IMG/VR virus record: IMGVR_UViG_2734482571_000007
Strand: one strand, 5' to 3'
Length of the DNA stretch: 39,690 nucleotides
DNA from: a virus
Taxonomy: Duplodnaviria > Heunggongvirae > Uroviricota > Caudoviricetes
The position numbers were made by a program, and so were the translations under genes. The notes under the pieces are model-generated. The model saw only the letters and a list, made by a program, of their open reading frames with translations, was not told the origin of the DNA and made no database searches. Below, piece by piece: positions 7,754 through 39,145 of this stretch. Each line of letters begins with the position of its first letter. Position 1 is the first letter of the stretch.

Positions 7754-8826
7754 GTGATTTCTCCTACCGTCAGCAGCTCACTGTCTCCCGCCTGAACTGA
7801 CGTCAGCGGACTGCGCACTTCAAAATCCTCCAGATTTTTCACCCCTGCCACCGCCCGCCAGAAAGACGACGGCAGAACCAGACCGCCGGGCCGGGATTCG
7901 TTATACAACAGGTCGGTCAGCGCCTGTTTTACGGCCGCCTGATTCTCCGGTGTTTTCGGGATGATCCTGATGCTGAAGGGCACCGGCTTATTGGTCAGTT
8001 TAAACACGGTCACCGTCGGCCCCAGAGGCTGTCCGACAGGCTGGCCGGTCGCCGGATCATCATGACTGCGGATATAATCCGCCACCCGCTGAACATCACC
8101 GTCACCGGGGAAAATATCCGGGTTATTATCCTGAACAAACGTTACCCCCACGCTGCCCGCCTGCGGCCATTCCGGGCGGCACCATGCCCGCGTCACGCCC
8201 GGCACTTCACGCGCCCAGCGTTCAAAATCATACTGCGTGCCGCCGGACGGTGGATTCTGCACCCGGAAAACCAGACGGGAAAGCAGCTCCGGCACGGTTT
8301 CCACATCCGCACCACCGGTGATCCCCGTTCCGGTCACCGTGGCCGTCTGGTTGATCCCCGCCTGCGGTGTGATAAATGTCAGTTTTGTCCCTGCCGGGGC
8401 ATTCCCCGCACGACCGGCACTTTCGGCTTCCACACTGACATTCAGCGTACCGGCCTTACCGGTCAGGGAGGTGGTGATACGGTAAACCACGCCATCACTT
8501 CGCTGGAGAAGCACACCTTCCTTGATCCCCGCATCCGTGGTCAGCATCAGCTGAACCGGCCCGTCCCCCCGAGAGGCAGGCTTACGCATGACGCCCCAGA
8601 ATGCACAGTGTTTCAGCAGTTCGGCTTCATCGGCTTCGGTCGGGATGATCTGACGCGCAATCCAGGCCAGATGCTCATGCTCCTGAGCAGATAACCCTGC
8701 CTGAGCGTAAGCAATGGCATTCAGGGTGGTTTCATTCACACCCGGCTGCGAGCCGGGCAGGCGCTGGCTGATATCCTGCTGTGTCTGCGTGATTAACTGT
8801 GCCAGCGGTAAAGGCTGATAAGGCAT
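7744..8826 (-). CDS. Baseplate J-like protein (Mu gp47-like)
   Basis: 360 aa; position and size in the baseplate cluster. Confidence 0.7.
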   Translation of the reverse strand: MPYQPLPLAQLITQTQQDISQRLPGSQPGVNETTLNAIAYAQAGLSAQEHEHLAWIARQIIPTEADEAELLKHCAFWGVMRKPASRGDGPVQLMLTTDAGIKEGVLLQRSDGVVYRITTSLTGKAGTLNVSVEAESAGRAGNAPAGTKLTFITPQAGINQTATVTGTGITGGADVETVPELLSRLVFRVQNPPSGGTQYDFERWAREVPGVTRAWCRPEWPQAGSVGVTFVQDNNPDIFPGDGDVQRVADYIRSHDDPATGQPVGQPLGPTVTVFKLTNKPVPFSIRIIPKTPENQAAVKQALTDLLYNESRPGGLVLPSSFWRAVAGVKNLEDFEVRSPLTSVQAGDSELLTVGEITWL

Positions 8827-9263
8827 TACTCCCCCTTAAGATCAGCATAAAAAATCATGGGCCTCACTGAACCATCAGGCAGGGTTATGCGCACCGAAAG
8901 CGCCAGCCGCGCGTGTCCCACACGTTCTGCATGACAGACCACGGATGACGCCACGCCATCCTGACTGAGCCAGCCCAGCGCCTCATCCGCGTAAGCACGG
9001 GCACGGCTTATCACCGAGGCCAGCGTTTTTTCCCGGCTGAGAAGCCACAGACGGGAGCCAATGGGGCGCGGGCGAAAACTGTCTCCCCACCATCCCCGGC
9101 GGTCGCGCGTACCGTCAGGGATTTCATCCGATGCCAGCGCCCGGCGGTCAGTAAACAGCGAAATCAGAACGGCCGTCAGCAGACTGTCATCCGTCAGCAA
9201 GTCGGCACCGTTCAGTTGCAGCGAACCGCACCCCTGATCCCATACAATTGCAATATCAGCCAT
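8826..9263 (-). CDS. Baseplate protein (Mu gp46 / P2 gpW-like); start at internal Met MADIAIVWD
   Basis: ATG at 9263 overlaps the stop of the upstream gene (AATGGCTGA); the longer ORF to 9407 would overlap gp45 heavily. Confidence 0.6.
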   Translation of the reverse strand: MADIAIVWDQGCGSLQLNGADLLTDDSLLTAVLISLFTDRRALASDEIPDGTRDRRGWWGDSFRPRPIGSRLWLLSREKTLASVISRARAYADEALGWLSQDGVASSVVCHAERVGHARLALSVRITLPDGSVRPMIFYADLKGE

Positions 9264-25950: not shown

Positions 25951-26195
25951 GCTTTACCTGTCAGAATGCTTTTGATTCGGGACTCAAGCTCTTCAGTCAT
26001 CACGTCCACGCCGCTCAACTCATCAGTGGCAGCCTCTGCCAGCAGCGAATGCAGTTGTTCCAGGGATATTTCCCCGGCAATGCTGAGTTCAGTCAACTCA
26101 CGACATACCTTTATGGTTTCAGGAGGTAACTGTGTTGCAAGACTGAATGCTTTCTGATGGGCACTGCTCATCAGTGAGCGGTTATCTGTTGCCAT
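25947..26195 (-). CDS. Small protein (82 aa) sharing a C-terminal 25-aa motif with the adjacent gp27-like protein
   Basis: AGGAGG ribosome-binding site; C-terminus DELSGVDVMTEELESRIKSILTGKA versus DELRGVDGMSEQIEFRIRQMLLGKA in the upstream gene; about 80 percent nucleotide identity over roughly 37 nt. Confidence 0.5.
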   Translation of the reverse strand: MATDNRSLMSSAHQKAFSLATQLPPETIKVCRELTELSIAGEISLEQLHSLLAEAATDELSGVDVMTEELESRIKSILTGKA

Positions 26196-26205
26196 GATTC
26201 ACCTC

Positions 26206-26787
26206 CTACGCCTTACCCAGCAGCATCTGCCTGATACGGAATTCGATCTGCTCGCTCATGCCATCCACGCCGCGCAACTCATCGGTGACCGCATTCGCCA
26301 TCTCTTCAGCAAATGCGGCCCGGATTTCTTTTTCACGCTTAATGCTGCGCTCGGCGGCACTTTCTGCACGCTGTGCCGACAGGAGGATGTCCTTAATAAG
26401 GCGCATATCCACATCGCTGTCGCTGTTCAGGGATTCGGTGGCGGCACGCAGACGGCGGTACATCAGGGCACGGGACATCTCCAGAATCAGTGCCGTGGTT
26501 TCACCGGTCGGCTTATCCCCCAGTTCGGCCATCATGGCTTTTGTCTGCTCGCGTAAATCACGCAGATTACGGGCAATCAGCTCATTACGGGAGGCTTCCC
26601 GGCTGATGGCCGCCGGTGAGAGCTGCTGCTCTTCCGGCAGACCTGCTTCACGGATCAGACGGTTGATTTCCTCGCGGATCTGGACCTGCGTCAGACGTTT
26701 TTCACGCAGCATTTCCAGCAGCGGCTTACGGATGCTGTCGGGGAGCAAATCCACCTTGCGTACACGGCCACGCGCTGGCTTATCCAT
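26206..26787 (-). CDS. Putative terminase small subunit / DNA-binding protein (Mu gp27-like)
   Basis: 193 aa; position upstream of the large terminase; charged helical protein. Confidence 0.5.
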   Translation of the reverse strand: MDKPARGRVRKVDLLPDSIRKPLLEMLREKRLTQVQIREEINRLIREAGLPEEQQLSPAAISREASRNELIARNLRDLREQTKAMMAELGDKPTGETTALILEMSRALMYRRLRAATESLNSDSDVDMRLIKDILLSAQRAESAAERSIKREKEIRAAFAEEMANAVTDELRGVDGMSEQIEFRIRQMLLGKA

Positions 26788-26789
26788 CG

Positions 26790-27080
26790 TTACCCCCTTG
26801 CGCGTGGTTTCTTCACACCCGGAACGGTGGCGCGGCCTTCCGCCACATCCTGACCCCGGCCGGTCAGTTCAGCGATGAAATAACCGTTAACAAGCGTGCG
26901 CTTACGCACCAGTCCCTGCTCGGCAAGCCAGGCAATGTGGGTATGAACGGTGTCGCGGGACACGCGGTGACCGTAATCATCCAGGCAGTCCTGAAGCACG
27001 GATTCGCCCAGTTCGCCGTTGTAATCCGCCAGCGACCGCAGAATGACAAGACGCTGATCTTCAGTAATGAAATCACTCAT
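26790..27080 (-). CDS. Hypothetical protein (96 aa), possible winged-helix
   Basis: ORF in the operon between the lysis and terminase genes. Confidence 0.45.
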   Translation of the reverse strand: MSDFITEDQRLVILRSLADYNGELGESVLQDCLDDYGHRVSRDTVHTHIAWLAEQGLVRKRTLVNGYFIAELTGRGQDVAEGRATVPGVKKPRARG

Positions 27081-27384
27081 TGTGTTTTTTCCTTACAGCC
27101 TGCTCCAGCAGCAGTTCGTTCTGATGGGAGACGGATTTCAGGGTGGCATTGGTGGCCTTAAGCTCACCGCGCAGGGTGGTGATTTCGATATTGAGTCTGT
27201 TCACCTCCTGCTGCGTGGGCAGGCCGGAAATCCGGCTCTCCACCCGCTCAACCCGGTCGGAGAGTTTTTCAAAGGCCTCGCGGGGGACAAAGGTTTTGCG
27301 CATCAGCGCCATGAAGATCCCCCCGGCTGTGGCCGTTGCCGACAGGATCGGCACGACATAATCTTTAACGATGCTGACCCACAT
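27073..27384 (-). CDS. Membrane protein with N-terminal transmembrane helix and C-terminal coiled coil (lysis-associated, Mu gp25-like position)
   Basis: GGAGG ribosome-binding site; hydrophobic VVPILSATATAGGIFMALM segment. Confidence 0.5.
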   Translation of the reverse strand: MWVSIVKDYVVPILSATATAGGIFMALMRKTFVPREAFEKLSDRVERVESRISGLPTQQEVNRLNIEITTLRGELKATNATLKSVSHQNELLLEQAVRKKHNE

Positions 27385-27592
27385 GACCGGCCTCCATGAT
27401 GTTCTGGCAGTTCACACAACGGATGGCATCCGGCACGGCAACCAGACGGGCAGCCGGAATGTCACCCCCGCAGTCCGCGCATACACGCCTGCCCGGTGTC
27501 TCCGCCACCCGGCGCTTACGTGTCAGCCGGTCACAAAGGGCGCGTTCTGTTGCACGCTCCATGACTGCCTGAGCACAATCTGAATCATCCAT
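27365..27592 (-). CDS. TraR/DksA-family C4 zinc-finger protein (start at internal Met MDDSDC)
   Basis: CADCGG...RCVNCQ four-cysteine motif; AAGGAAAAAGG ribosome-binding site. Confidence 0.65.
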   Translation of the reverse strand: MDDSDCAQAVMERATERALCDRLTRKRRVAETPGRRVCADCGGDIPAARLVAVPDAIRCVNCQNIMEAGHVGQHR

Positions 27593-27602
27593 ACCTTTTT
27601 CC

Positions 27603-27974
27603 TTACTTCGTCTTTCCTGCCGGAACAGCAGTCGTTCCGGCCATATCAGTAAATTCATGCTGTCGCTGTGTCTCCAGACGGCGGATGCTGGCCTTGTCCA
27701 CGTTGCAGTTTTTAATCACCGCCAGCAGTTGCAGGTTGTAAGTGACCGATGCACCAAACGTGAACGGCTGCGGCGCGGGAGGGACCAGGCAGTCAGCCAG
27801 CCATTCAGCGGGGATCGGCACCGGCTTCACCGGCACGTATTTCACAGACGGCCCGCCGCACCCGGTCAGCCACATCATCAGGCACAGGCACAGCGGCAGC
27901 AGGCACCGTTGCCAGTGACCGGCGGACAATGCTCTGCTGTTCCTCGCTGTGCTGCATGTTCTGCTGTTTTTCAT
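27603..27974 (-). CDS. o-spanin-like outer-membrane lipoprotein (Rz1-like); start uncertain
   Basis: Lipobox-like LTGC followed by a Pro-rich segment; frame overlaps the i-spanin gene in the classic Rz/Rz1 way. Confidence 0.5.
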   Translation of the reverse strand: MKNSRTCSTARNSRALSAGHWQRCLLPLCLCLMMWLTGCGGPSVKYVPVKPVPIPAEWLADCLVPPAPQPFTFGASVTYNLQLLAVIKNCNVDKASIRRLETQRQHEFTDMAGTTAVPAGKTK

Positions 27975-28155
27975 TCGTGGCCGCCTTGCTGATTTGTGAA
28001 ATGAGTTGCAGGGTGCGTTGCTGGTTTGCCAGCACCAGACGGGCTTCGTCCCGTTCACGCACAAGCACATGATTATTGTCCTCAAGGCGCTGCGTCTTCT
28101 GGTGCATTCCCCATACCACGGCAGCCAGCACGCTCATCACCCCCAGCGCCGCCAT
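27805..28155 (-). CDS. i-spanin-like inner-membrane protein (Rz-like); start at internal Met MAALGVMSVLAAVVWG
   Basis: N-terminal transmembrane helix then coiled coil; GGAGG before the internal ATG; the longer ORF to 28326 overlaps the endolysin gene. Confidence 0.55.
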   Translation of the reverse strand: MAALGVMSVLAAVVWGMHQKTQRLEDNNHVLVRERDEARLVLANQQRTLQLISQISKAATNEKQQNMQHSEEQQSIVRRSLATVPAAAVPVPDDVADRVRRAVCEIRAGEAGADPR

Positions 28156-28267
28156 ACAGCCTCCGGCAATCAGGGCCGGTAAGGGATTGTTCACCGCAGA
28201 CACAGCACACCCCGCAGCAGCACAACGGCACACAGCAGCGCAATCATGAGCGGTCGCCAGAAGCGGT

Positions 28268-28768
28268 TCAGACTTTCGGCAAATCGTAACGACATAACCA
28301 TTCATCCGCCGAACGGCGGGCCTCAAGACCGGGGAGTTTTACCCCCTTTGAATAAATCCAGCGGATATACTGCTTACAGGACGCGGGCATCTGCCCGGCA
28401 TTGATAAGGCGCAGGAGCGTGGAGTTGCGAAAGTTCGTTTCACCGGCCCAGAAAATCCAGGAGGCCAGCGCCACCGTCTGACCACGGGTAAGCGGCACCT
28501 GAACATGACGATCGATAGCCGCAAAGGCCCATTTCATGTCCTTTTCCAGCAGCTCCAGACACTCTTCATCAGTTTTTGTCATCCCCGGTTTCACATCCGG
28601 GCCGGTATGGCCGTAACAGATGGTGGGGGTGCCGGTGGGATCAATGTACGTGGTGTTTTCTTTCCCTTCCCAGTAGCCGGTGTAGTGCGTGGCAATGGTG
28701 AACGTCCCGGCTCCGGCCAGAACAAGGGCAATCAGCTTTTTACGCAGGGGTGCGGGGAGTTTTGGCAT
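28268..28768 (-). CDS. Endolysin, lysozyme-like, with N-terminal signal-anchor-release (SAR) domain
   Basis: N-terminal weakly hydrophobic LIALVLAGAGTFTIA segment; lysozyme-like core resembling the SAR endolysin of phage P1. Confidence 0.8.
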   Translation of the reverse strand: MPKLPAPLRKKLIALVLAGAGTFTIATHYTGYWEGKENTTYIDPTGTPTICYGHTGPDVKPGMTKTDEECLELLEKDMKWAFAAIDRHVQVPLTRGQTVALASWIFWAGETNFRNSTLLRLINAGQMPASCKQYIRWIYSKGVKLPGLEARRSADEWLCRYDLPKV

Positions 28769-28839
28769 TGTTACGCTGTCTCATGGTGTTCTCTGAGTCA
28801 GCGTAACCGTGAGGAAAAGGGGGCAGGATTTGCGGAATA

Positions 28840-29262
28840 TCAGAAAAGCCGTGGCTGCGTGCGTTCCTGATGCAGGCGACGCTGGTTGCGGATAACGGAG
28901 TAAATCTGCGTCTCTGACATCTGGTAGTGGCGGCGCAGGGTTTCAATTTTTTCGCCCTGGCTCCAGCGGGAAAAAATTTCATTATTGCGCAGTTCGGTGA
29001 AAAGGGATTCACCGACCGGGAGATAATAACCACGCCCGCCCATGTACCCGGCCTGTGCGGCTGCAACCTTACGGGCAAGCATTCCCGCCTGAGCAGGTTC
29101 AATCCCCTGACGGTGCAGTTCAGCACTGATCACATCAACCAGGTCCCGCAGCGTGCCGGGCCAGTTCTTTTTCAGCTCATCATCAGGAATATCATCCAGA
29201 CGGTCAATCAGCGCGTGCAGCTGTTCGCTGTCACCAAACATGCTCATCTGTGTTTCAGCCAT
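28840..29262 (-). CDS. Mor/C-family transcriptional activator (only family member found)
   Basis: C-terminal region GGRGYYLPVGESL...QMSETQIYSVIRNQRR matches the Mor/C C-terminal helix-turn-helix pattern; lies just upstream of the lysis genes. Confidence 0.75.
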   Translation of the reverse strand: MAETQMSMFGDSEQLHALIDRLDDIPDDELKKNWPGTLRDLVDVISAELHRQGIEPAQAGMLARKVAAAQAGYMGGRGYYLPVGESLFTELRNNEIFSRWSQGEKIETLRRHYQMSETQIYSVIRNQRRLHQERTQPRLF

Positions 29263-29332
29263 ACCCGCCTCCGGTCATCATTACACAGGGCAAGTTTAAA
29301 ATAAAAATCCCGCGCTGTGGCGGGATTTGGGG

Positions 29333-29845
29333 TTAACGGGGGAATGATTTTTCATACAGCCTGCAAACACGCTCATAACTCATCACTGCACGTTCCGACA
29401 TATCCAGGGCTGCCAGCATTTTGCGGCGGTGCCAGCGTTTGAGACGCTCCAGCACATCAGAGGCCAGCGCGGGTTGTTGCTCCAGCCACTGCCAGTTAGC
29501 CACACCTTCGCCGTCGTTCTGCGCGGCCGTCTGCGATTTCACCCAGCGGTTAAGGGCCGTTTCCCCGCCATCAGAGATAAATCCCTGCCGGTGCATCACT
29601 TTCCAGATGGCGCGAATTTTGGCGGTCACCGTACCCGGTTTTAAGGCCCGGTTAACCGGCTTCTGACGCACTTTAAAACCGCGTTTTTTGAAAACATCCA
29701 GCACGCGGGATAACTCACCGGGTGACATATCACGGCAACTGGATTTGCCGGTGGCTGCCAGCAGCGCGGATGTATAGGTATCATGGTCAAGCTGTAGATC
29801 GCGTTTTGCGACATGTATTAAGGTAATCAGGGAAGCGCGATTCAT
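29333..29845 (-). CDS. GemA-like regulatory protein (Mu gp16 family)
   Basis: N-terminal LITLIHVAKRDLQLDHDTYTSALLAATGKSSCRDMSPGEL pattern; position immediately before Mor/C. Confidence 0.55.
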   Translation of the reverse strand: MNRASLITLIHVAKRDLQLDHDTYTSALLAATGKSSCRDMSPGELSRVLDVFKKRGFKVRQKPVNRALKPGTVTAKIRAIWKVMHRQGFISDGGETALNRWVKSQTAAQNDGEGVANWQWLEQQPALASDVLERLKRWHRRKMLAALDMSERAVMSYERVCRLYEKSFPR

Positions 29846-29857
29846 TATCGTGGCTCC

Positions 29858-29877
29858 ATAAAAAATGGGCGGTGTTA
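29858..29877 (-). terminator. Hairpin GGCGGTG-N6-CACCGCC followed on the minus strand by CAUUUUUUAU, immediately upstream of gemA
   Basis: Perfect 7-bp stem and a U-tract on the early-operon strand, about 8.95 kb from the prophage left end. Confidence 0.45.
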
Positions 29878-29915
29878 CCGCACCGCCATGTCAATTAACA
29901 TAAAAGGAAAAATCT

Positions 29916-30155
29916 ATGTCAGATATAAAAAATGCACTTGATGTTGCCGCATTCACAATGGCTGGAAATCTTATGGTAACCCTGTTCGATAAGGGGCTGA
30001 TTTCCCGTGAGGAGGCAATACATATTATCAATCTCGCTCAAAAAAACTCTACCCCGGAAAATGCAGAAGATATCCAGGATGGCTCATATATTAATACCGA
30101 CTGGCATTTCGACAATCTCCGGGCCTGTATGGGGATTACCGCTGAAAAAGATTAA
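29916..30155 (+). CDS. Hypothetical protein (79 aa) on the opposite strand to the early operon, in an AT-rich island
   Basis: AAGGA ribosome-binding site; low GC relative to neighbours; 3' end overlaps the convergent gene by 20 nt. Could be a non-coding gap instead. Confidence 0.4.
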   Translation: MSDIKNALDVAAFTMAGNLMVTLFDKGLISREEAIHIINLAQKNSTPENAEDIQDGSYINTDWHFDNLRACMGITAEKD

Positions 30156-30423
30156 AAATTTTTGCATAATGTTCAGATGTAAGAATTGCTGAACCATCAA
30201 CACCGAGCCTACGGCGAACGTATTCCTCGCGGGCTATTTTATTATCCAGAGATACAGCATCCTTAATCAGGTTAATCTCCCGCTCCATTATCAAAAGGGC
30301 TTCTCTGGCTGCAAGATTTTCTTTTATCGCATATTCGATAATGTCCCGCATACGTTCAAGCATGCCGATTTTAGCCAGTTCTTCGTCGATAGATTTAGGC
30401 GCAAATTTGATTTCTTTTTCCAT
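30136..30423 (-). CDS. Hypothetical early protein (95 aa from MEKEIKF), AT-rich
   Basis: GAGGA ribosome-binding site; ATG lies 1 nt after the stop of the upstream zinc-ribbon gene (translational coupling). Confidence 0.5.
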   Translation of the reverse strand: MEKEIKFAPKSIDEELAKIGMLERMRDIIEYAIKENLAAREALLIMEREINLIKDAVSLDNKIAREEYVRRRLGVDGSAILTSEHYAKIFNLFQR

Positions 30424-30424
30424 A

Positions 30425-30568
30425 TTATTCATCCTCACAATTTATACATGCAGTGTCGTCGCCCATATCGCAGTGGTTACATTTTATCTCACCACAATGT
30501 GGGCACTCTTTCAGATACTCCGGGTCCTCATTTCCACAGGTGGGACATTCAACAATTTGCTCATCCAT
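30425..30568 (-). CDS. Small zinc-ribbon protein (47 aa, four CxxC pairs); not in the supplied ORF track
   Basis: MDEQIVECPTCGNEDPEYLKECPHCGEIKCNHCDMGDDTACINCEDE read from the minus strand. Confidence 0.5.
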   Translation of the reverse strand: MDEQIVECPTCGNEDPEYLKECPHCGEIKCNHCDMGDDTACINCEDE

Positions 30569-30893
30569 TATGTATCCCCTGTAATTCCGGCAAGGCCGAA
30601 AGATGGCACCAGTGCGTCACCTGTCCGTCCTCATCTTCAAGGCAGGCTCCGGTTTCTTCATCAATAAAAAAGCCTTCATACCCCATATGGCCGATGCGCA
30701 GTTCCTGTTGGTCACCATACTGAACAATCAGCACGACAGCCTCCATATCAGGCGGAAATGCGTCATCCAGTGAATGCCAGGGATAACCGCGCAAATCCCC
30801 GAAATAAACGCCGGTCAGCGTTCCGCCACAGAGCGGCATTCCGGCGGCACACACAAGAGGTTCATCTGATTCAACAAATAAGGTCGTTATCAT
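30561..30893 (-). CDS. Hypothetical early protein (110 aa), acidic
   Basis: ORF in the early operon with overlapping start/stop. Confidence 0.45.
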   Translation of the reverse strand: MITTLFVESDEPLVCAAGMPLCGGTLTGVYFGDLRGYPWHSLDDAFPPDMEAVVLIVQYGDQQELRIGHMGYEGFFIDEETGACLEDEDGQVTHWCHLSALPELQGIHNG

Positions 30894-31441
30894 GGCGTTA
30901 ACTCCCGTAATACAGCGTCCTCGGCAGTCCGGCGACGGTAATAAACTGCGTGAGCAGAATGTTCAGATATTCCAAACTTTTCGCCAATTTCCCGGAATGA
31001 CAGACGGCGTGGGTAATCGGAATCACGCAGCTCACGTATAAGACGTACATCATCATCAGATATGCGCGTGCCGGGGCGTAACTCTCCGCACTTTGTTAAT
31101 CCAGCACCAATCATTCCTGCCCGACATCTGACAGAATCTTTATTACGTCCGAGATATTCTCCCATTTGCTGGCAGGTCATTGTTCTGGCATTTTTTCGAA
31201 TAAACTTATCTTCATCAGGTGTAAATCTTGGGTGTTTATATTTCAGTAACTCCGGGTATGAACTGCGCAATACACCAGTCCGGTTATATACAGCCCAGAC
31301 AGTTCTTTTTATTCTGGCAGCAATATCCTTAACCGGGGTGGATGAATAAAGCGCAATCAGCAGCGCATCTTCTTCAGGTGTCCACGGACGGACATGAGCG
31401 GGGGCGCGACCTTTTAGTCCCATGGGTTGTAATTTCATCAT
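30890..31441 (-). CDS. Early protein with three internal ~45-aa repeats reminiscent of Myb/SANT helix-turn-helix
   Basis: Repeats begin WTPEEDALL, FTPDEDKFI and ISDDDVRLI, each followed by a basic helix. Confidence 0.5.
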   Translation of the reverse strand: MMKLQPMGLKGRAPAHVRPWTPEEDALLIALYSSTPVKDIAARIKRTVWAVYNRTGVLRSSYPELLKYKHPRFTPDEDKFIRKNARTMTCQQMGEYLGRNKDSVRCRAGMIGAGLTKCGELRPGTRISDDDVRLIRELRDSDYPRRLSFREIGEKFGISEHSAHAVYYRRRTAEDAVLRELTP

Positions 31442-31444
31442 GCA

Positions 31445-31960
31445 TCACCCCCTGACTCGCTTTTCAGCAGCATAAAACTCATCAGACAGTATTTCGGTCA
31501 TTTTCTGTTTTGCGGGTTTTACGCCGCACTGAAGGTAAATCACATCGTCAACGCAGAACCACTTCACAGGGCCAAACAGGATTGCCGAGAAATCAATACC
31601 CAACCAGAACAACAGCGCATCGGTTCTGGCATACGTGACGGGCGAATATTCACGCCACAGACTGTTCAGTTCATCAGAGGCAACACGCAGGGTTTTAGGG
31701 ATACGTGATGTGCGCGGTGTGCAGCTCCAGCCATTCGACGCAGTCGGTTTTCGCCATAAGTCGCGATGAAAAGGATATTTGTCCTCCGTAAAACGCAGTC
31801 CCTTAAAGTAAAATCCACTGATACCGGATACAAATACCGACCGGCACGCAACATTCAGCACGGCCTCAAGGCGTTTTGCCTCATCCTTAACTTTCTGGCA
31901 GTCCTGCTGGTATTTTTGCCACGCAGCCAGCGCGGAAGGGTTTGATGTTTTAAAGAACAT
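31445..31960 (-). CDS. Hypothetical early protein (171 aa)
   Basis: ORF in the early operon. Confidence 0.45.
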   Translation of the reverse strand: MFFKTSNPSALAAWQKYQQDCQKVKDEAKRLEAVLNVACRSVFVSGISGFYFKGLRFTEDKYPFHRDLWRKPTASNGWSCTPRTSRIPKTLRVASDELNSLWREYSPVTYARTDALLFWLGIDFSAILFGPVKWFCVDDVIYLQCGVKPAKQKMTEILSDEFYAAEKRVRG

Positions 31961-32493
31961 TACGCCACCTCCGCAGATATCCCGGCAGGCGCTGCTGTCC
32001 GGTCAACAATCAGGTAGCGCAGAACATGTTCAGTGATATTCCAGCCGCTTAAACCGCAGATAATGACGCCCAGGCGTATGTCGATATACGCCATCACAAA
32101 CTGGGGCACGCCTTCTTTCATGGCCTGCTCATCAACTTCAGCCACCACATAAACGGTTTCACAGGTCAGAACGCCCTGAGCAAATTCCCACGCCATCGAC
32201 GGAATATCATGCCCCTCAATCCATGGCAGGGATTTTCTGAAGCCGCACCACTGAACATCATCAGCCGCAGATTCCTGGCTGCATTTGCGACGAACCGGCT
32301 GCACCGGGCGGGGACGCGGAATATCATAAAAACCGTTACATTCCGTCAGCACGCCTGCATCAACCGCATCACGCAGAAAATAAACCATGGAGGATGGCGG
32401 CATATTCATTTTTTCAGCCAGTACACCGCAGGTCAGGCGGCCATAAATACACAGCCAGTTTTTAACCCCTTCAAGCACTTTTGCATCAATCAT
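31960..32493 (-). CDS. Hypothetical early protein (177 aa), possible N-terminal winged helix
   Basis: ORF in the early operon. Confidence 0.45.
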   Translation of the reverse strand: MIDAKVLEGVKNWLCIYGRLTCGVLAEKMNMPPSSMVYFLRDAVDAGVLTECNGFYDIPRPRPVQPVRRKCSQESAADDVQWCGFRKSLPWIEGHDIPSMAWEFAQGVLTCETVYVVAEVDEQAMKEGVPQFVMAYIDIRLGVIICGLSGWNITEHVLRYLIVDRTAAPAGISAEVA

Positions 32494-32638
32494 GATTTAT
32501 TTCCCCACCACATTATTAATGACGATATAAACGTATTTCATATTTCTTAACCCTTATTTTCTGTTTTCAGGCGCAAGCAGTCCCCTGACGCGAGCGCCAT
32601 AATTAAAATGAAGTGATATTTAATTGATTAATGCGGTG

Positions 32639-33169
32639 TTATTTATTCAGTCCGGCGTCCTGTTCAAAAGGCTCGACATAAAAACTTTCAGCGCCTTTAT
32701 TCACCTTGATACCGGCAATGCCTTTCACAGCATCCGGCTCCGCCAGGACGGCTTCCTTGTTCACTTCCTCTTTCGTGCGGATGAAACGCTCAAGCCCCAT
32801 ACGGCGCAGCATTTCAATCACACCTTCCACATCACGGCTGACGCTGCATGATGGCGTTCCCAGCCGCCATGACACCGTTCCGGTGGTCAGATTGGCTGTT
32901 TTGGTTTTGCCGCCGTTCGTCAGCTCATCACGGTTGGTTTTGCACCAGTCCTGAATCCCTTTAAAAAGCACTTTGATTTGCTTTTTAAGATTTTCAATCT
33001 GCGGCGTATAACGGGCGGTGATTTCTGCCACTTCGTCATTCATCGCCGTTTCCAGGCGCAGCGCCTCTCGCTGAATATCTCCCAGGGTGCGGATATCACG
33101 GCTGACTTCTTCCCGGGTCTGCGGTGCCGCCTCGGCTGCGGCCTTTAATTTTGTAACGCGTTTAGCCAT
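32639..33169 (-). CDS. gam: Gam-like host-nuclease inhibitor (Mu Gam family)
   Basis: 176 aa; motifs LGDIQREALRLETAMNDEVAEIT, WCKTNRDELTNGGKTKTANL and ERFIRTKEEVNKEA match Mu Gam as recalled. Confidence 0.85.
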   Translation of the reverse strand: MAKRVTKLKAAAEAAPQTREEVSRDIRTLGDIQREALRLETAMNDEVAEITARYTPQIENLKKQIKVLFKGIQDWCKTNRDELTNGGKTKTANLTTGTVSWRLGTPSCSVSRDVEGVIEMLRRMGLERFIRTKEEVNKEAVLAEPDAVKGIAGIKVNKGAESFYVEPFEQDAGLNK

Positions 33170-33180
33170 TTTGTTTTTCC

Positions 33181-33474
33181 TTATTGCAGTGTGCCTGATG
33201 CTTTATGCACGCGGTGGCGTTTAATGATGGCATCCGCTCCAAAAGACTGTGCAGATGCCTGAAATTCCGCTGAGAGAAACTGAATAATTGCAGGACTGTG
33301 ATACTGGAGAATACTTGCATAAACGTCACAGAGTGACGTCGGCCTGTTATCCGTATCACGTTCTGTTTTCACATCCACTCCAATCTTTTCATGCACTTCA
33401 ACACAGTCATTGCCTGCCAACTTTTCGTCATGCGAAACATGATTAAATTCAAAAATAACGCGTACTTTGCTCAT
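33181..33474 (-). CDS. Small early protein, tandem paralogue A (starts MSKVRVIFEF)
   Basis: N-terminus parallels the adjacent ORF 33479..33751 (MSKVVRIIFEY). Confidence 0.5.
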   Translation of the reverse strand: MSKVRVIFEFNHVSHDEKLAGNDCVEVHEKIGVDVKTERDTDNRPTSLCDVYASILQYHSPAIIQFLSAEFQASAQSFGADAIIKRHRVHKASGTLQ

Positions 33475-33478
33475 GGAA

Positions 33479-33751
33479 TTACCCCTGTTGATTAAATTCA
33501 TTACCGTTAATAACCCCGGAAGCCATGCCTCTGTCTTTCATGAATGCACTGGCTTTCATTGCCACAAACTCTGCGAAGTTTCTGCTTTCTGCCAGCATAA
33601 CCACCCCAAAAATCATGGCGGGTCCATTATCTTTCTTCTTTATTCCGGTTGAACGTATATCCAGACTTACCCCTCTGTGCGTGCTGCCATCAGAGTTTTT
33701 GCAGATAACATCTTCCTTGTATTCGAAAATAATGCGTACGACTTTACTCAT
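33479..33751 (-). CDS. Small early protein, tandem paralogue B (starts MSKVVRIIFEY)
   Basis: See paralogue A. Confidence 0.5.
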   Translation of the reverse strand: MSKVVRIIFEYKEDVICKNSDGSTHRGVSLDIRSTGIKKKDNGPAMIFGVVMLAESRNFAEFVAMKASAFMKDRGMASGVINGNEFNQQG

Positions 33752-34029
33752 CCTCTGGTCCTCGTTCTGTTTGGATAACTGACCCGGCGTCTAACCTCAC
33801 GGCAGAACCGAATCATGGCATTAAAGGCTTCTTCCTCCGTCACCGCTTCCGGTATCCCCGGAACCAGTAACTGCTCCTGTTCATCACGTCCATGACGCGC
33901 CATAACCTCAATCACATGCCGTACCGTGGCAGGCTTTCCGGCAACTATCGGCAATGCACCTTCCGGCAGGACGTAACCAAACTCAATAAGACCACTCGAC
34001 CACGCCCATGCAATGAGATTTTTTTTCAC
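33748..34029 (-). CDS. Hypothetical early protein (93 aa)
   Basis: ORF in the early operon. Confidence 0.4.
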   Translation of the reverse strand: MKKNLIAWAWSSGLIEFGYVLPEGALPIVAGKPATVRHVIEVMARHGRDEQEQLLVPGIPEAVTEEEAFNAMIRFCREVRRRVSYPNRTRTRG

Positions 34030-34030
34030 C

Positions 34031-34297
34031 TCACACCTCCCAGTAAACCGTGCAGCCGCTGATGCGGGTGGCCTTCACACGGCGGCGCAGGCCGTTGGTC
34101 TGTATGGTGATTTCAATTTCACCGGTTCCCTGCACGTTGCCTACCGGCGGCGTGGTTTTCAGTGCAAAACGTTGCGGATAGCGCTTACTGCGTTCCAGTA
34201 CCGCACCGGCAAGTTCGGTCAGACGGCGCGCGCTGTTCAGGGAGTCGAATAAATTCATTTTGTTACCGCAGGATTGCATATTCATATAACACCTCAT
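34031..34297 (-). CDS. Hypothetical early protein (88 aa or shorter)
   Basis: ORF in the early operon. Confidence 0.4.
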   Translation of the reverse strand: MRCYMNMQSCGNKMNLFDSLNSARRLTELAGAVLERSKRYPQRFALKTTPPVGNVQGTGEIEITIQTNGLRRRVKATRISGCTVYWEV

Positions 34298-34525
34298 TTA
34301 GCTGACTTGTTTCGCACCAACAGAACGGCATATTCCGCTGTAAACTTCTGTCGCACCTTCGCGATCAAGTCCGGCAGATATCACCATTCGTGTGCGGTCA
34401 TTAAATTCAAAAAGTAAATCGCCACATTCTTTATTTTCGGCCAGTGAAATCACCTTCACGTTATCGAAATTAACCAGGTAAAAGCGTCCGTAAATATCAG
34501 GAATATTAAATACCGCCATAATCAC
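34298..34525 (-). CDS. Small early protein at the Kil position (75 aa, directly after B)
   Basis: Position and size match Mu kil; no sequence recognition. Confidence 0.4.
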   Translation of the reverse strand: MIMAVFNIPDIYGRFYLVNFDNVKVISLAENKECGDLLFEFNDRTRMVISAGLDREGATEVYSGICRSVGAKQVS

Positions 34526-35463
34526 ACCTGTGAGAGTAATTCAGGGTTGGTATAAACCTCTTTAAAGGCCGCATTAATATGTTTTTCTGTCAGCGCCGCG
34601 CCTTCACCGCTGGCGGTGAGCCACGCCTGGTTAAGCGTATGTGTCAGAACGCGTAACGCTCCCGGCTTTTCAGCGATAGCCTGCATGACGGCCAGCTCGG
34701 CCTCACCACTGATCCCCCACGCCATGGCAATGGCCAGCACATCCGCCTTTTTGGCCTTGCGAAGTTGTTTTGTACGGGCAAGACGGCTGAACAGGCGCGA
34801 TAAATCATCAAAGGCGCGGCGTCCACCTTTAAACAATCCGCGCGGGTTACCAATAAGCACCATCCCGATCCCCGTGGCGTCCTGAATTGCCCGGAGTTGC
34901 TCCAGACCGTCAATACCAAGATGATCCGCCTCATCCACAATCACCAGTCCACGCGTTCCCATCAGGCGACGGCGGATGGCGCGGGATAATGCCCCTTTGT
35001 TCGCGCGGGTGTAATCAATCCCCAGCGCATCGGCCAGCTCCAGCAGACACTCCGTGACGCTGGAGTGCGCGGGTGACAGGGTGATCATCCAGGTGTTTGG
35101 TTGCTCCTGGCAGTAATTACGGGCAGTGGCCGTTTTACCCACACCCGGTACGCCCACAATAACGTTAATACAGCCCATCAGGCGAACCGCCTGAAACAGT
35201 GCGCGCAGCTCCTGGACTGTCTGAGTTTCCACAAACTGCGGCGGTTCCGGCAGTGCGCTTTGTTTATTCCAGTTCTCATACCAGGAGCGCAGGGAAGCAG
35301 CCACAGCAGCGTTATCGCCTTTATATTTTCCCTTACGGAAAGCCGATAATGTGCCGTCGGAAATTCCCGCCTCTCTGGCGATGGCATACTGCGTCAGTAC
35401 GCCGCCATCAATAAGTTCATCAATGGTCTTGATTACATCGTTAATATCGGTCATATTATTCAC
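34522..35463 (-). CDS. B: MuB-like ATP-dependent target-DNA activator
   Basis: 313 aa; Walker A GVPGVGKT; directly after the transposase. Confidence 0.85.
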   Translation of the reverse strand: MNNMTDINDVIKTIDELIDGGVLTQYAIAREAGISDGTLSAFRKGKYKGDNAAVAASLRSWYENWNKQSALPEPPQFVETQTVQELRALFQAVRLMGCINVIVGVPGVGKTATARNYCQEQPNTWMITLSPAHSSVTECLLELADALGIDYTRANKGALSRAIRRRLMGTRGLVIVDEADHLGIDGLEQLRAIQDATGIGMVLIGNPRGLFKGGRRAFDDLSRLFSRLARTKQLRKAKKADVLAIAMAWGISGEAELAVMQAIAEKPGALRVLTHTLNQAWLTASGEGAALTEKHINAAFKEVYTNPELLSQV

Positions 35464-35536
35464 CTCGCTTGAGACAGCATTCTCCGAGACTGAAACCTCA
35501 AATAACCTGAGTCACCCCTCGGGTTATTTTTTTATT

Positions 35537-37624
35537 TCAGGCCAGCGGATCACTTTCTTTTAATTTCGCTTCGAGCAGTTGCAATCCCCGCTGGAAATTA
35601 CGCTCGTATTCTTCATCAGGTTCATCGTCAGCGACCGGTTGCTGAACGGTCACCGTATTACCCACAGGGCGGTATATGTTTTCCAGCCAGGGCTCCTGCG
35701 GCTTGTGCTCCAGCACGTTGACAACCTCATCCTCGGCATCACGGATTTTTTCCTCTGCGCGTTTACGCATGCCTTTAAGGCGCTGCTGCTGTTTGTAGTA
35801 TTCCGCGCTGACAGGGAAGGCTTCGCGTTTATTGCCGTCCCATACCGCCTCGCAAATCACGCTGCCATCCGGGCGGCGCACGGTAATTCGTTCGGCATCA
35901 TGAATGTCATAGCTGATAAGTACCTTACGGCCATGCTCGTCACGCAGCTCGGGCGCGTAGTAAATATTATTCAGCCAGCGTATTTCACAGCGTCTTACAG
36001 GGCGCTCCACCATCGGCCGGAACATATCCCGCAGTTCAACATCGGACAGCCATTCAATTTCCGTGTCCTCTTCCGCCAGGCGTTTTTTTCTGAACTCCGC
36101 CGGGCTGTAATGTTTACCGTTCGGCTTCATGGGTAATTCATCGTGCGGCCGGTTGTTGTACCACTCAACACCGTCACGAATGGCATCAATCAGTTCAGAC
36201 CAGGACGGTAAATCACGCATCGCTGACTGCTGCCGGGCGTTCAGCCGTTTGCCCTGTTGCAGGGCACTGAATGCCGAGCGTAAATCGCGGTTGGTTTTAC
36301 GTAACGTCTCGCGATCTGCTCCTTTCCCGAAATAGGTGCGGTATTTACGGGCTATGCGCATCGGTAATGTGCGGTTAAGCCGTTCGATAATGCCCCGTCC
36401 CTGCGGATTACCGGCAATCCCTGTCGGGTGATTAATCCCCAGTCGTGGCAGTATCCCCACAATCTCCTTATCCAGGACGTCGGCGGTTTCCCCGGAGCCA
36501 TTATCCGAGTAATACAGAAACGGTTTGCCATGATGGCGAATACCGTGCTGTATGGCACCGGCTACGGCGAAAACATTTTCAGCCAGGTCAAGGCTCCAGC
36601 CCACCACAAAGCGCGTGCCACCGTCGATAACAAAGGTCACTTCCGGTGCGAATGGCCGCCCGTGAACCGGGTGCGCGCATTTCAGCTTCATGCCGTGACC
36701 GTCACCAATCCAGACATAATTCACCGGCATTCTGGACCAGTCGCGGCGCGTGAATCCCTCAAGCTGACGGTATTCACTGCCAGTTACCCGGCCTTTTTGT
36801 TTCACCACTTCCGGCAGTTTCTTCATTGCGCGGCGAATGGTGTCATAAGAGGGCATGATATCGAGCATATAAGGCTCATCAGCGTGCCGGTGCTGCCATT
36901 CAGCAACAAAATCCTCGTAAGCCTCGGTCATTGGTCGGCCGTTTGACTGGCGATACTGCGCCAGAAATTCGGGCAGCCAGTTAATATCTTCGGCTTTTAT
37001 TTCCTGGCGTTTACCCGGTGCCAGTAAAAGCAGGCGTTCAGCGGCGTTCTGTGCCTTGTTAAAGGCCGCAATCCAGCGTTTCAGCGTGATTTCACTCAAC
37101 GCGCGGCTGTTTCCCTTTTTGGCGTTCGCCGTCTCAACCATTGCCACAATGCGCTCGTCCAGTTGTGATCGTGCCAGGCTGTTAACGAGGAACCGGATAG
37201 CTTTAGCGCAGCTGAAACCGGGTTGTTGCGTGAATTTCAGCACCTCACTGACGATCGCAATGCGTGCGTCTGCCACCTGGCGCTGGTTTTCAGTCAGGGC
37301 ATTGAGGCGTTCGACCATCAGTTGTGGTGATCCGCGATATGCCTCCACCGCATCAACCACGGCAGACGAGCGTCTGGCCTTTGTCACCACCGGAGCCGGT
37401 GATTCATCGGCTTTTTGCGTCATCAGTTGCAGGGCATAACGTTCGCGTAATGCCTGCTGTGTCACTTCAGGTAAACAGTCAATGCTGTATTCAAAACCTT
37501 TAGCGCCTTTCTTGCGGCGTCTGCTGGTTTCGCTGGTTGCATACTTCCTGATTGAATAGCGAACGCCTTGCTCCGTTCCCGGCATCCCCGGTAATCCAAC
37601 CAGTTCTTTAACTGAAGCAAACAT
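35537..37624 (-). CDS. A: MuA-like DDE transposase
   Basis: 695 aa; N-terminus (LPGMP...GVRYSIRK) parallels MuA; position between ner and B. Confidence 0.9.
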   Translation of the reverse strand: MFASVKELVGLPGMPGTEQGVRYSIRKYATSETSRRRKKGAKGFEYSIDCLPEVTQQALRERYALQLMTQKADESPAPVVTKARRSSAVVDAVEAYRGSPQLMVERLNALTENQRQVADARIAIVSEVLKFTQQPGFSCAKAIRFLVNSLARSQLDERIVAMVETANAKKGNSRALSEITLKRWIAAFNKAQNAAERLLLLAPGKRQEIKAEDINWLPEFLAQYRQSNGRPMTEAYEDFVAEWQHRHADEPYMLDIMPSYDTIRRAMKKLPEVVKQKGRVTGSEYRQLEGFTRRDWSRMPVNYVWIGDGHGMKLKCAHPVHGRPFAPEVTFVIDGGTRFVVGWSLDLAENVFAVAGAIQHGIRHHGKPFLYYSDNGSGETADVLDKEIVGILPRLGINHPTGIAGNPQGRGIIERLNRTLPMRIARKYRTYFGKGADRETLRKTNRDLRSAFSALQQGKRLNARQQSAMRDLPSWSELIDAIRDGVEWYNNRPHDELPMKPNGKHYSPAEFRKKRLAEEDTEIEWLSDVELRDMFRPMVERPVRRCEIRWLNNIYYAPELRDEHGRKVLISYDIHDAERITVRRPDGSVICEAVWDGNKREAFPVSAEYYKQQQRLKGMRKRAEEKIRDAEDEVVNVLEHKPQEPWLENIYRPVGNTVTVQQPVADDEPDEEYERNFQRGLQLLEAKLKESDPLA

Positions 37625-37626
37625 AA

Positions 37627-37857
37627 TTACGCGACCTTACGAATGTAGCGGCTGGGCCAAATCTCCTCGGGCGGCACCCCCAGGCATTCCGCGATAATCC
37701 CCTCATACTTGGGAACATGGCGGTATACCGCGTTGTACAGATTGTTCTGACCCACGCCAGCTTTACGGGCCAGCGCCCTCATGCTTCCTTCTCTGGCTCT
37801 GACTTCCCCCAAAATTCTTTGAGGATGCCAATCAGGCTTAACTTCATTTCTCGCCAT
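37627..37857 (-). CDS. ner: Ner-like DNA-binding regulator
   Basis: 76 aa; DWHPQRI and IWPSRY motifs of the Ner/Nlp family; first gene of the early operon. Confidence 0.85.
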   Translation of the reverse strand: MARNEVKPDWHPQRILGEVRAREGSMRALARKAGVGQNNLYNAVYRHVPKYEGIIAECLGVPPEEIWPSRYIRKVA

Positions 37858-38042
37858 GATTCATCTATCCTAAAAAGTTACGAAATTTGATAACTAAACT
37901 TAGTTATCAAGTTTGATATAAGTATTGATCCACTTCTGCTTCATGTAAAGCAAAAAAAACATCTTTCTTTTGTCTATTGTGGATCAATGGTTGCTGACAA
38001 CACTAAAAGTTAATAATTTCAAATTGATAGGAAGAAAAGAAA
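37858..38042. promoter_or_regulatory. Divergent operator/promoter region between ner and c
   Basis: Perfect palindrome TTGATAACT-N6-AGTTATCAA (37887-37910); 10-bp inverted repeat ATTGATCCAC / GTGGATCAAT (37925-37934, 37979-37988), each holding a GATC; several TTGATA motifs. Confidence 0.55.
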
Positions 38043-38588
38043 ATGAACAAGCAAACAACAACATCTCTTTCTTTTCCTGGTGGTAGAAAAGAAAGCATTG
38101 CTGAGCGTCTGAAAAGGCTGATTGGCTCCCGCAGCGTCAGAGCTGCAGCAAGAGATTGGGGGCTTTCATTTTCAACACTAAACAATTATCTGTCTCGTGG
38201 CACTGAGCCATCCTTAAGTGTCGCCCTTCAGATTGCGTCTATCGAAGGAGTAAGTGTTGAGTGGCTATGTGGATTCAGTGATGCATCACAAGTGAATCGG
38301 TGTGAGATCAAGGAAAATCAAGATGAAAGCAAGAAGATAATTATGACGATTATCAGCGCACTTGATGAAAAAGACTTAGAGCAGCTATCGAAAAATTTGG
38401 TTCTGAATGGAGCCAAGTACTTAGCTCGGTTGTTAGAGCCTGAAAATCAAGATCTAATCCGCTTAGAAGGAAGGAAAAGAATAGCTGCATTACAGCTTGA
38501 AGGTATGTCTGACGAACGCGTCAGAGAGATTTTGGAAGAAACTGAGAGAAGTCGCAAATCTAACGCGGTAGAACCAAAAGCGGGTTAA
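38043..38588 (+). CDS. c: Mu c-like repressor
   Basis: 181 aa; divergent from ner-A-B as in Mu; helix-turn-helix-like N-terminus; own ribosome-binding site. Confidence 0.7.
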   Translation: MNKQTTTSLSFPGGRKESIAERLKRLIGSRSVRAAARDWGLSFSTLNNYLSRGTEPSLSVALQIASIEGVSVEWLCGFSDASQVNRCEIKENQDESKKIIMTIISALDEKDLEQLSKNLVLNGAKYLARLLEPENQDLIRLEGRKRIAALQLEGMSDERVREILEETERSRKSNAVEPKAG

Positions 38589-38608
38589 TAGCATTAGCCC
38601 GCATTTTG
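38580..38608 (+). terminator. Rho-independent terminator overlapping the c stop codon
   Basis: 7-bp stem GCGGGTT/AGCCCGC (one G-U pair), 9-nt loop, then ATTTTG. Confidence 0.5.
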
Positions 38609-38654
38609 CACTATATCGAGTATTTCGCATTGTTTGGAACGCCTTAAAAGACTA

Positions 38655-38824
38655 AAACCACAGTATCAAATGAGTTGCCGATTTTATAATAAATGACTAA
38701 TTATTGCACAATCGGTATCAAATAGACCTTATCCGCACATCTAGCCATCACCTGTTTTATTTCAGTATCTTACAGGTGATTTCACCTCCTTTCACTAAAC
38801 CCCTTGTCGGTATCAAATGATTCA
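38655..38824. repeat. Prophage left-end transposase-binding repeats (three copies of the GGTATCAAAT core at 38661-38670, 38711-38722, 38807-38820)
   Basis: Inverted copies of the repeat at 212-295; inward-reading consensus GAWTYWTTTGATACCGA at both extremes. Confidence 0.6.
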
Positions 38825-39145
38825 CCTGGTTATATGTCGCCAGTCGATACCTTCCAGCAGCATCGCCAGCTGCGCCTGTGTAAGGAACACTTTGCCATCA
38901 CGGGCTGACGGCCAGGCGAAGCGCCCACGCTCCAGCCGTTTGGTCAGGAGGCACAGTCCGTCACTGGTGGACCACAGCAGTTTAACCTGACTGCCGCTGC
39001 GGCCCCGGAAAATGAAAACATGGCCGGACATGGGATCGTCTTTCAGCGCCGTCTGTACTTTCGCAGCCAGGCCGTTGAAGCCATTTCTCATATCGGTGAT
39101 ACCGGCAACCAGCCAAATTTTGATCCCGGAAGGTAACGGGATCAT
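38822..39145 (-). CDS. tnpB: IS66-family TnpB (Orf2)
   Basis: IWLVAGITDMRNGFNGLAAKVQ...FIFRGRSGSQVKLLW...GLCLLTKRLERGRFAWP matches the IS66 Orf2 pattern. Confidence 0.85.
   Translation of the reverse strand: MIPLPSGIKIWLVAGITDMRNGFNGLAAKVQTALKDDPMSGHVFIFRGRSGSQVKLLWSTSDGLCLLTKRLERGRFAWPSARDGKVFLTQAQLAMLLEGIDWRHITR

Follow-up and report, generated by a model that had tools for sequence, protein, structure and literature searches.

The AT-rich block upstream of gemA in a Mu-like Escherichia coli prophage is its Mu gp13–gp15 segment, with a conserved stem-loop that may attenuate early transcription

Introduction

Upstream of gemA in a Mu-like transposable prophage of Escherichia coli lies an AT-rich block (29846–30440) in which a small gene, open reading frame (ORF) 79, runs against the early operon, and at whose gemA-proximal end the early-strand RNA can form a stem-loop. 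Is this block a foreign module or a regular part of the genome, and what might the stem-loop do? The window, by which we mean the whole 39,690-nucleotide (nt) stretch of viral DNA analysed here (IMG/VR record IMGVR_UViG_2734482571_000007), carries the prophage with its early operon on the − strand. An initial annotation of the window had taken the block for a horizontal acquisition, possibly an anti-defence or exclusion module or the boundary between early and middle transcription. The comparisons reported here point instead to a standard segment of Mu-type genomes, and on balance we favour a role for the stem-loop as a partial attenuator of early transcription. Coordinates are collected in Table 1; related loci are referred to by L numbers.

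Results

The low-GC block corresponds to the gp13–gp15 segment of Mu

By homology and gene order, the low-GC block is this phage's Mu gp13–gp14–gp15 segment, preceding gemA in Mu's own order and orientation. The 47-amino acid (aa) zinc-ribbon protein shows 88% identity to Mu gp13 over 41 aa (BLASTP, E 2e-27), and the 95-aa protein 49% identity to Mu gp14 over 94 aa (BLASTP, E 1e-30) together with a match to phrog_6075 (E 5.4e-44). At the nucleotide level, 30203–30550 is approximately 72% identical to Mu 7528–7875 and to D108. Four CxxC motifs (CPTC, CPHC, CNHC and CINC) are present in the 47-aa translation, for which the Pfam zinc-ribbon matches were weak and all under the gathering threshold. 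Only 1 nt separates the stop codon of the zinc-ribbon gene from the ATG of the 95-aa gene, in line with the translational coupling of the two that was initially proposed. The zinc-ribbon gene has no PGAP annotation in the 100%-identical E. coli HH35 record (NZ_CP136993.2), while metagenome gene callers do call it.

The gene order and orientations of the window are those of Mu (NC_000929, Mup13–Mup16, 7471–8784). There, RefSeq places gp15 (Mup15) on the reverse strand at 7896–8162, with a 62-nt overlap with gp14 (20 nt in the window) and a gap of 69–70 nt to gemA; in the AF083977 re-annotation of Mu the reverse-strand gp15 is replaced by an early-strand ‘Mu_54’. Likewise, D108 (GQ357916, 7431–8833) has gp13 and gp14 homologs and the same intergenic hairpin, and its sequence around the ribosome-binding site of the reverse gene is nearly identical to that of the window. 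The arrangement is thus largely ordinary and already annotated in Mu.

The windowed computation confirmed that guanine-plus-cytosine (GC) content is not uniform and that a stretch of about 0.6 kb is markedly low. The GC content of 29846–30440 is 0.410, against 0.537 for the whole window and 0.549 for its prophage part (standard deviation 0.049, z −2.9); among 595-nt windows of the early region just 0.8% reach so low a value, and this is the lowest-GC stretch of the prophage besides the repressor region (window starts 37724–38314). The same dip is found in Mu, D108, L046, L048 and L052, in which the module lies 5–13 GC points under gemA (0.465 against 0.553 in Mu). Low GC is therefore a property of this genome position across the Mu family and not a sign of recent import. 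Of the initial reading of the block as an acquired module, its distinct composition and its exchange as a unit (see below) stand; its foreign origin does not, given the Mu gp13, gp14 and gp15 homologs and the GC dip common to relatives.

ORF79 belongs to a family with Mu gp15

ORF79 is a gp15-family gene, placed on the opposite strand tail-to-tail with the gp14-like gene and head-to-head with gemA across about 70 nt. The initial annotation had proposed a 79-aa gene here with a 20-nt overlap, and both were recovered: the 3′ end of ORF79 overlaps the 95-aa frame at 30136–30155, and AAGGA, 7 nt 5′ of its ATG, provides a good ribosome-binding site. The protein matches phrog_32893 over its full length (E 1.3e-45). 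A word-indexed search returned close relatives only, while an exhaustive HMMER search gave seven more representatives at 37–49% identity. The N-terminal half of all family members aligned contains FD.AAF.LAGNLL..L..KG.IS..EA; near the C terminus, a WH[LF]DNL motif is kept in homologs of 31–49% identity.

Profiles of the ORF79 family (A1 and A6), compared with Mu gp15 (NP_050619) using hhalign, gave probabilities of 92–93% (E 3e-7 to 5.5e-7) over residues 1–55. A 119-aa reverse-strand ORF of D108, lying between gemA and gene 14 (L008 986–1345, +) and unannotated in the D108 record, contains the ORF79 core; it was matched by the family with an hhalign probability of 94.6% and a BLASTP E of 2e-6. 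It differs from ORF79 in a 30-aa N-terminal extension and in a C-terminal part that is only loosely similar, without the tryptophan and histidine of WH[LF]DNL. This ORF and that of L057 bridge the ORF79 family and Mu gp15. Mu gp15, the unannotated D108 ORF and ORF79 (phrog_32893) thus form one family that is always tail-to-tail with gp14: all lineages recovered have a gp15-like gene that converges on a gp14-like gene and overlaps it. Where gemA is the divergent neighbour, the gap to the gp15-like gene is 64–75 nt. This order recurs in distant lineages, and the layout was seen across L041–L053.

The ratio of non-synonymous to synonymous substitution rates (dN/dS) of ORF79, 0.23–0.39, indicates purifying selection comparable to that on its neighbours (0.18–0.29 for the gp14-like gene and 0.12–0.42 for gemA). 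An A7 run within ORF79 is a natural −1 frameshift site; several database alleles with a −1 change at the run, or a +2 change nearby (a 2-nt insertion), encode products of 91–92 aa without the conserved C-terminal motif. Conservation of WH[LF]DNL therefore marks the 79-aa frame as the selected one.

AlphaFold2 modelled ORF79 as four helices (predicted local distance difference test, pLDDT, 80) and the gp14-like protein as helical (pLDDT 87), so that ORF79 is predicted to be a small helical protein. A relationship of the gp15 family to DUF2513 (winged helix) was ruled out, the hhalign probability being 0.3%. For the two proteins singled out initially, homology search and structure prediction thus yielded the Mu gp14 and gp15 families and helical models, and fold matches that were uninformative, including those for the gp14-like model. 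Pfam searches of the block proteins gave nothing above gathering thresholds and searches of PDB sequences no convincing match. PADLOC assigned 0 families for ORF79, the gp14-like and gp13-like proteins, the 110-aa protein (orf110), the D108 ORF, Mu gp15 and the DUF2513 protein; its sole match was a 102-aa protein of an alternative cassette (variant B, below), with an E of 0.068. The suggestion of an anti-defence or exclusion module found no support in any of these searches.

A stem-loop is conserved upstream of gemA

The 70-nt region between gemA and ORF79 contains both ribosome-binding sites and a conserved stem-loop on the early-strand RNA, followed by a pyrimidine- or U-rich spacer. The perfect 7-bp stem followed by U6 that the initial annotation had noticed upstream of gemA is present, although its span of 29858–29877 was some 10 nt off and covered only the T-run and the 3′ arm. 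Intrinsic terminators were called as a GC-rich stem of at least 5 bp with a loop of 3–8 nt and then at least five U in 8 nt; the window hairpin has seven pairs (six of them G-C), a 6-nt loop and the tail CAUUUUUUAU. Its calculated free energy on the early strand is −13.2 kcal/mol. Four terminator-like matches were found in 2.8 kb against 2.7 ± 1.8 expected, which is not unusual alone; it is the conservation at the same position in other phages that makes the hairpin more than chance.

A stem-loop occupies the same place in Mu (8193–8212), D108, L046/L099, L048, L050, L051, L052, L057 and the variant-B prophages, including L003, always 7–10 nt from the gemA Shine-Dalgarno sequence. In Mu it is likewise GGCGGUG...CACCGCC, 8–10 nt before the Shine-Dalgarno sequence; the window version has a 6-nt loop and a true U6, whereas that of Mu is followed by CCCUUUCC. 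The post-stem tract is always pyrimidine-rich, with a U content from 3/8 (Mu) to 6–7/8 (window, L048 and L051). In L055 and L054 a terminator-like hairpin stands before a divergent gene that is not gemA. The hairpin is missing where gemA is coupled to an upstream gene on the same strand, and an Edwardsiella prophage with a DUF2513-like reverse gene is without a GC hairpin. When wider gemA loci were taken from genome contigs, most distant gemA genes followed a same-strand gene without a gap, and only the hairpin of L057 was gained. In L011, which lacks the DUF2513 gene of variant B, the hairpin and UGUUUUUAC directly follow the stop codon of the upstream gene, as an ordinary terminator would.

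An alignment of 11 sequences had 96.6% of cells paired, against 31–70% when partner columns were slid. Two of the eight pairs showed two-sided changes: U-A had become C-G in three sequences, and G-C had become C-G in one. Eight G.U pairs were present. Folding of the more divergent versions also favours the early strand over its complement by 3–5 kcal/mol. A 150-nt core, which runs from the 5′ part of gemA through the intergenic region into the 5′ part of ORF79, is invariant, with 0 differences to L041, L042, L005 and L044, while its flanks differ by 3.5–12%.

No Rfam family was matched on the hairpin. Folding of the 70-nt region revealed only the hairpin and weak local stems, with none of the alternative structures of the Trp-leader type. 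We also rejected an anti-Shine-Dalgarno model, in which the complement of the ORF79 Shine-Dalgarno sequence would sequester that of gemA in read-through RNA; partition-function folding of nine intergenic regions gave an accessibility of the gemA Shine-Dalgarno sequence no lower than with shuffled upstream sequence.

The stronger of two terminator-like sites lies behind gemA

Behind gemA lies a canonical intrinsic terminator, AAAUCCCGC-caca-GCGGGAUUU plus UUAUUUU, which is stronger than the hairpin upstream of the gene; these two sites flanking gemA are the best two on the − strand in a 13-kb scan (26000–38900) that spans the early region. An Rfam Trp_leader match at 29300–29371 (21.5 bits, against a gathering score of 41) overlaps the post-gemA terminator. 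Within 29263–29332 (−), the terminator is followed by CCCTGTGTAATGATGACC, an order resembling Mu's overlapping t9.2 terminator and Mor-dependent Pm. Mu t9.2/Pm (9163–9233) resembles the window hairpin in being a GC-rich dyad with a T-run on the early strand, but is not positionally homologous to it: the window hairpin corresponds to Mu 8193–8212 and is therefore not t9.2, whose counterpart by resemblance is the site at 29305–29328. The early operon more likely ends at this site. The proposal that the hairpin upstream of gemA marks the early/middle boundary fails on the same grounds, as approximately 1 kb separates its Mu counterpart from the terminator and middle promoter further downstream.

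In Mu, gemA overlaps mor, whereas in the window gemA is followed by the strong terminator and a single C-like activator. This 140-aa activator (28840–29262) directly precedes the lysozyme gene and is 40% identical to Mu C and 28% to Mor; being closer to C, it suggests that the phage runs on a single C-like activator. In L004 (83–505), L045 (467–889; 140 aa) and L006 (159–500; 113 aa) an opposite-strand gene (+) occupies the usual Mor/C-like position downstream of gemA, which could reflect inversion or replacement of the activator module.

The block is exchanged among close relatives

Breakpoints of blastn alignments with L003, L011, L004 and L006 indicate that the module (29865–30577) is NEVERTHELESS mosaic and is swapped as a unit. 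In these close E. coli prophages, whose flanks are 93–97% identical, homology is lost at 29864 or 29818 and picked up again at 30578 or 30555. The slot is filled in variant B by two unrelated early-strand genes and a reverse-strand DUF2513 gene, convergent and overlapping, and in variant C by one 103-aa gene in translational coupling with gemA. With a GC content of 0.42–0.43, the two alternatives match the block in AT-richness. The slot between the 110-aa gene and gemA is thus a recombination hot spot for alternative AT-rich modules; the block is swapped in close E. coli relatives, yet its layout is common to Mu, D108 and distant lineages. DUF2513-type proteins fill the reverse-strand slot beside gemA in L003 (1111–1521, +) and L056 (an Edwardsiella prophage).

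As for signals of its own, the cassette has no terminator on the + strand downstream of ORF79, and the only + strand promoter candidate upstream (29755–29784) is broken by substitutions in relatives.

Genomic setting

The 1.6 kb around the block is 100% identical to four complete E. coli chromosomes. This query is present whole or in part in 232 of 5426 genomes, and the window's version extends across at least 80% of it in only 13 of the 232 E. coli genomes with the region. From right to left, the PGAP order is Gam, several hypothetical proteins, a SANT/Myb protein, the 110-aa protein, a gap at the zinc-ribbon gene, the 95-aa protein, the 79-aa protein on the opposite strand, a ‘gp16 family’ protein (GemA), a Mor-family activator and lysozyme.

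The left flank of the prophage changes to IS66-family tnpA/tnpB at ~38835, which places the hairpin about 8.95 kb from the prophage left end, as first estimated. Mu end sequences had no match in the prophage, and the left end was placed through the flanking IS66 homology. Between ~38835 and 39690 the left end abuts IS66-family tnpA/tnpB and then, from ~39605, IS1; the Mu-like prophage therefore sits inside an IS66-type element. Within the early region, a 12-bp stem followed by TTTTTATTT at 35500–35529 (+) is terminator-like in the direction opposite to the early operon.

Table 1. Positions of the features discussed, in window coordinates.
Feature	Position	Strand	Remarks
Canonical intrinsic terminator	29305–29328	−	9-bp stem + UUAUUUU; after gemA
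gemA	29333–29845	−	Pfam GemA, E 1.8e-28
gemA ATG	29843–29845	−	
gemA Shine-Dalgarno sequence	29854–29857	−	GGAG
Invariant core	29785–29935		150 nt; from alignment of relatives
Divergent gemA/ORF79 intergenic region	29846–29915		70 nt
U6 tract	29860–29865	−	CA-UUUUUU-AU after the stem; read from sequence
Stem-loop	29868–29887	−	GGCGGUG-cgguaa-CACCGCC; early-strand RNA, ~10 nt 5′ of gemA Shine-Dalgarno sequence
Mosaic module	29865–30577		Exchanged whole among close E. coli Mu-like relatives
ORF79 (79 aa, gp15 family)	29916–30155	+	Divergent from gemA, convergent with gp14-like gene; PGAP WP_001280088.1
A7 run in ORF79	30040–30046	+	Natural −1 frameshift site
gp14-like early gene (95 aa)	30136–30423	−	Mu gp14 homolog, phrog_6075
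gp13-like gene (47 aa)	30425–30568	−	Zinc ribbon with four CxxC; Mu gp13 homolog, phrog_5584

Discussion

For the locus as a whole, the explanation that we think probably correct, with reservations, is the Mu gp13–gp15 block with a hairpin serving as partial attenuator. The hairpin most likely acts as a partial intrinsic terminator on early transcripts, and the attenuator-like character first ascribed to it is plausible for the early strand. It has the anatomy of E. coli intrinsic terminators, with a GC-rich 7-bp stem, a 6-nt loop, U6 within 2 nt of the stem and a stability of about −13 kcal/mol, and, like terminators and attenuators generally, it lies in untranslated RNA between genes. Attenuation is favoured by this canonical anatomy, by the position of the hairpin at the end of an untranslated stretch of about 290 nt antisense to ORF79, by selection on pairing that includes G.U pairs, and by the lack of a hairpin where there is no untranslated gap.

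Transcripts from the early promoter (Pe) would cross these ~290 nt of untranslated RNA antisense to ORF79 and then meet the hairpin, where partial termination would lower and delay the expression of gemA and of the C-like late activator downstream. The U-tract would set the strength of attenuation, strong here (U6) and weak in Mu. ORF79 would be transcribed from a promoter of its own within the 29785–29935 core, against early transcription; as that promoter opposes the early one, most expression of ORF79 probably takes place in the lysogen, where Pe is repressed.

Several observations weigh against this interpretation. That transcripts terminate at the hairpin is deduced from its sequence, and termination would have to be partial, since gemA and the late activator lie downstream and an efficient stop would cost the lytic cascade its activator. 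Unlike usual terminators, the hairpin is separated by only ~10 nt from the ribosome-binding site of gemA, whose expression is still required; moreover, its U-tract varies among homologs and folding produced no alternative antiterminator structure. In Mu the tract CCCUUUCC holds only 3/8 U, TransTermHP made no call in AF083977 and the region is labelled a promoter, so that termination may not be the conserved function. Covariation is modest, with 2/8 pairs changing on both sides and 15 of 500 shuffles reaching the observed score, and in the window-type hairpin folding slightly favours the opposite strand (−15.1 kcal/mol, compared with −13.2 kcal/mol on the early strand). Consensus scans provided no credible placement of a sigma-70 promoter for ORF79 or gemA. 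As regards the block itself, pairwise BLASTP of ORF79 with Mu gp15 was not significant, and their homology therefore rests on profile comparison and synteny.

The alternative with most in its favour, which we nevertheless hold to be unlikely, is that gemA has a transcript of its own whose promoter or 5′ leader includes the hairpin, like the Mu ‘semi-early’ gem promoter, the stem protecting the mRNA from 5′-end-dependent decay and any termination being incidental. The intergenic region corresponds to Mu 8151–8217, labelled ‘Semi-early promoter, PMID 9454718’ in AF083977, inside which the Mu hairpin falls, and constitutive gem expression has been reported. The fixed 7–10-nt spacing between hairpin and Shine-Dalgarno sequence, the AT-rich stretch 5′ of the stem in all versions and an invariant 150-nt core that would suit overlapping promoters all fit such a leader, as does CTGACA-N17-GTTAAT, which, read from the window, would start transcripts at the base of the stem. 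On the other hand, the candidate −10 elements are weak, differ among phages and did not pass the consensus scan, in which promoter-like sites were no more numerous than in shuffled controls; a 5′ stabiliser also needs no U-rich tract, yet most versions have one. The literature searched on gemA/gemB, Mup15 and Mu RNA-seq gave nothing relevant besides references to the gem-operon papers of Paolozzi and Ghelardini and one Pseudomonas Mu-like phage.

It is also conceivable, if improbable, that the gp14/gp15 pair, the invariant 150-nt control region and the hairpin together form a conserved, undescribed switch in Mu-type phages. The lysogen would then have a repressor-independent promoter pair expressing gp15 and, weakly, gemA; upon induction, Pe transcription would collide with and silence gp15, making long sense/antisense RNA, and the hairpin would meter read-through to gemA and the late activator, timing the lytic cascade. 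In that case proteins of the gp15 family, and the DUF2513 proteins found in their place, would be made in the lysogen and could serve, for instance, in exclusion or host modulation.

We regard as very improbable that the inverted repeat is a DNA operator at which a dimeric phage or host regulator controls the promoters of ORF79 and gemA. The idea is invited by the perfect 7+7 palindrome in the middle of the 70 nt that separate these two divergent genes, with 150 invariant nt around it, and by the GC-rich dyad of Mu t9.2, which lies within the annotated Mor-activated middle promoter and which we take to be the Mor-binding site itself. The G.U pairs through which several versions alone keep their pairing break the DNA palindrome, however, and the half-sites change in L052, L003 and L055 with pairing kept; both features make an operator less likely, and the loop varies from 4 to 6 nt. 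In the geometry of Mor/C-type activators the dyad centre is near −42. The centre here is ~32 nt from the gemA ATG and ~39 nt from that of ORF79, so a start site of that geometry would come to lie within the coding sequences or at their border.

Least credence is given to a horizontally acquired moron with ORF79 as anti-defence or exclusion gene and the hairpin as early/middle boundary: low GC, the other cassettes of near-identical prophages (one with a DUF2513 gene in the same reverse orientation), an orientation of ORF79 that would allow expression in the lysogen and the precedent of a Pseudomonas Mu-like phage whose small reverse-strand genes act in exclusion (PMC9936078) speak for it, yet Mu has homologs of all three genes, ordered and oriented alike, the PADLOC, Pfam and fold searches were without matches, no + strand terminator was found downstream of ORF79, the homologous Mu hairpin lies 1 kb upstream of the early terminator and a stronger terminator follows gemA.

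The main value of these results is corrective, in that a low-GC “island” harbouring a reverse-strand gene is easily read as a moron or anti-defence module, yet this one is a core element, albeit a fast-evolving one, of the way Mu-family genomes are laid out. They add a unified gp15 family, the conservation of the hairpin and the slot as a mosaic hot spot, and they do not overturn current understanding. In the Mu family the stem-loop is kept through compensatory changes and the U-tract behind it is not constant, a combination which suggests that transcription into gemA and the late activator is attenuated to a tunable degree.

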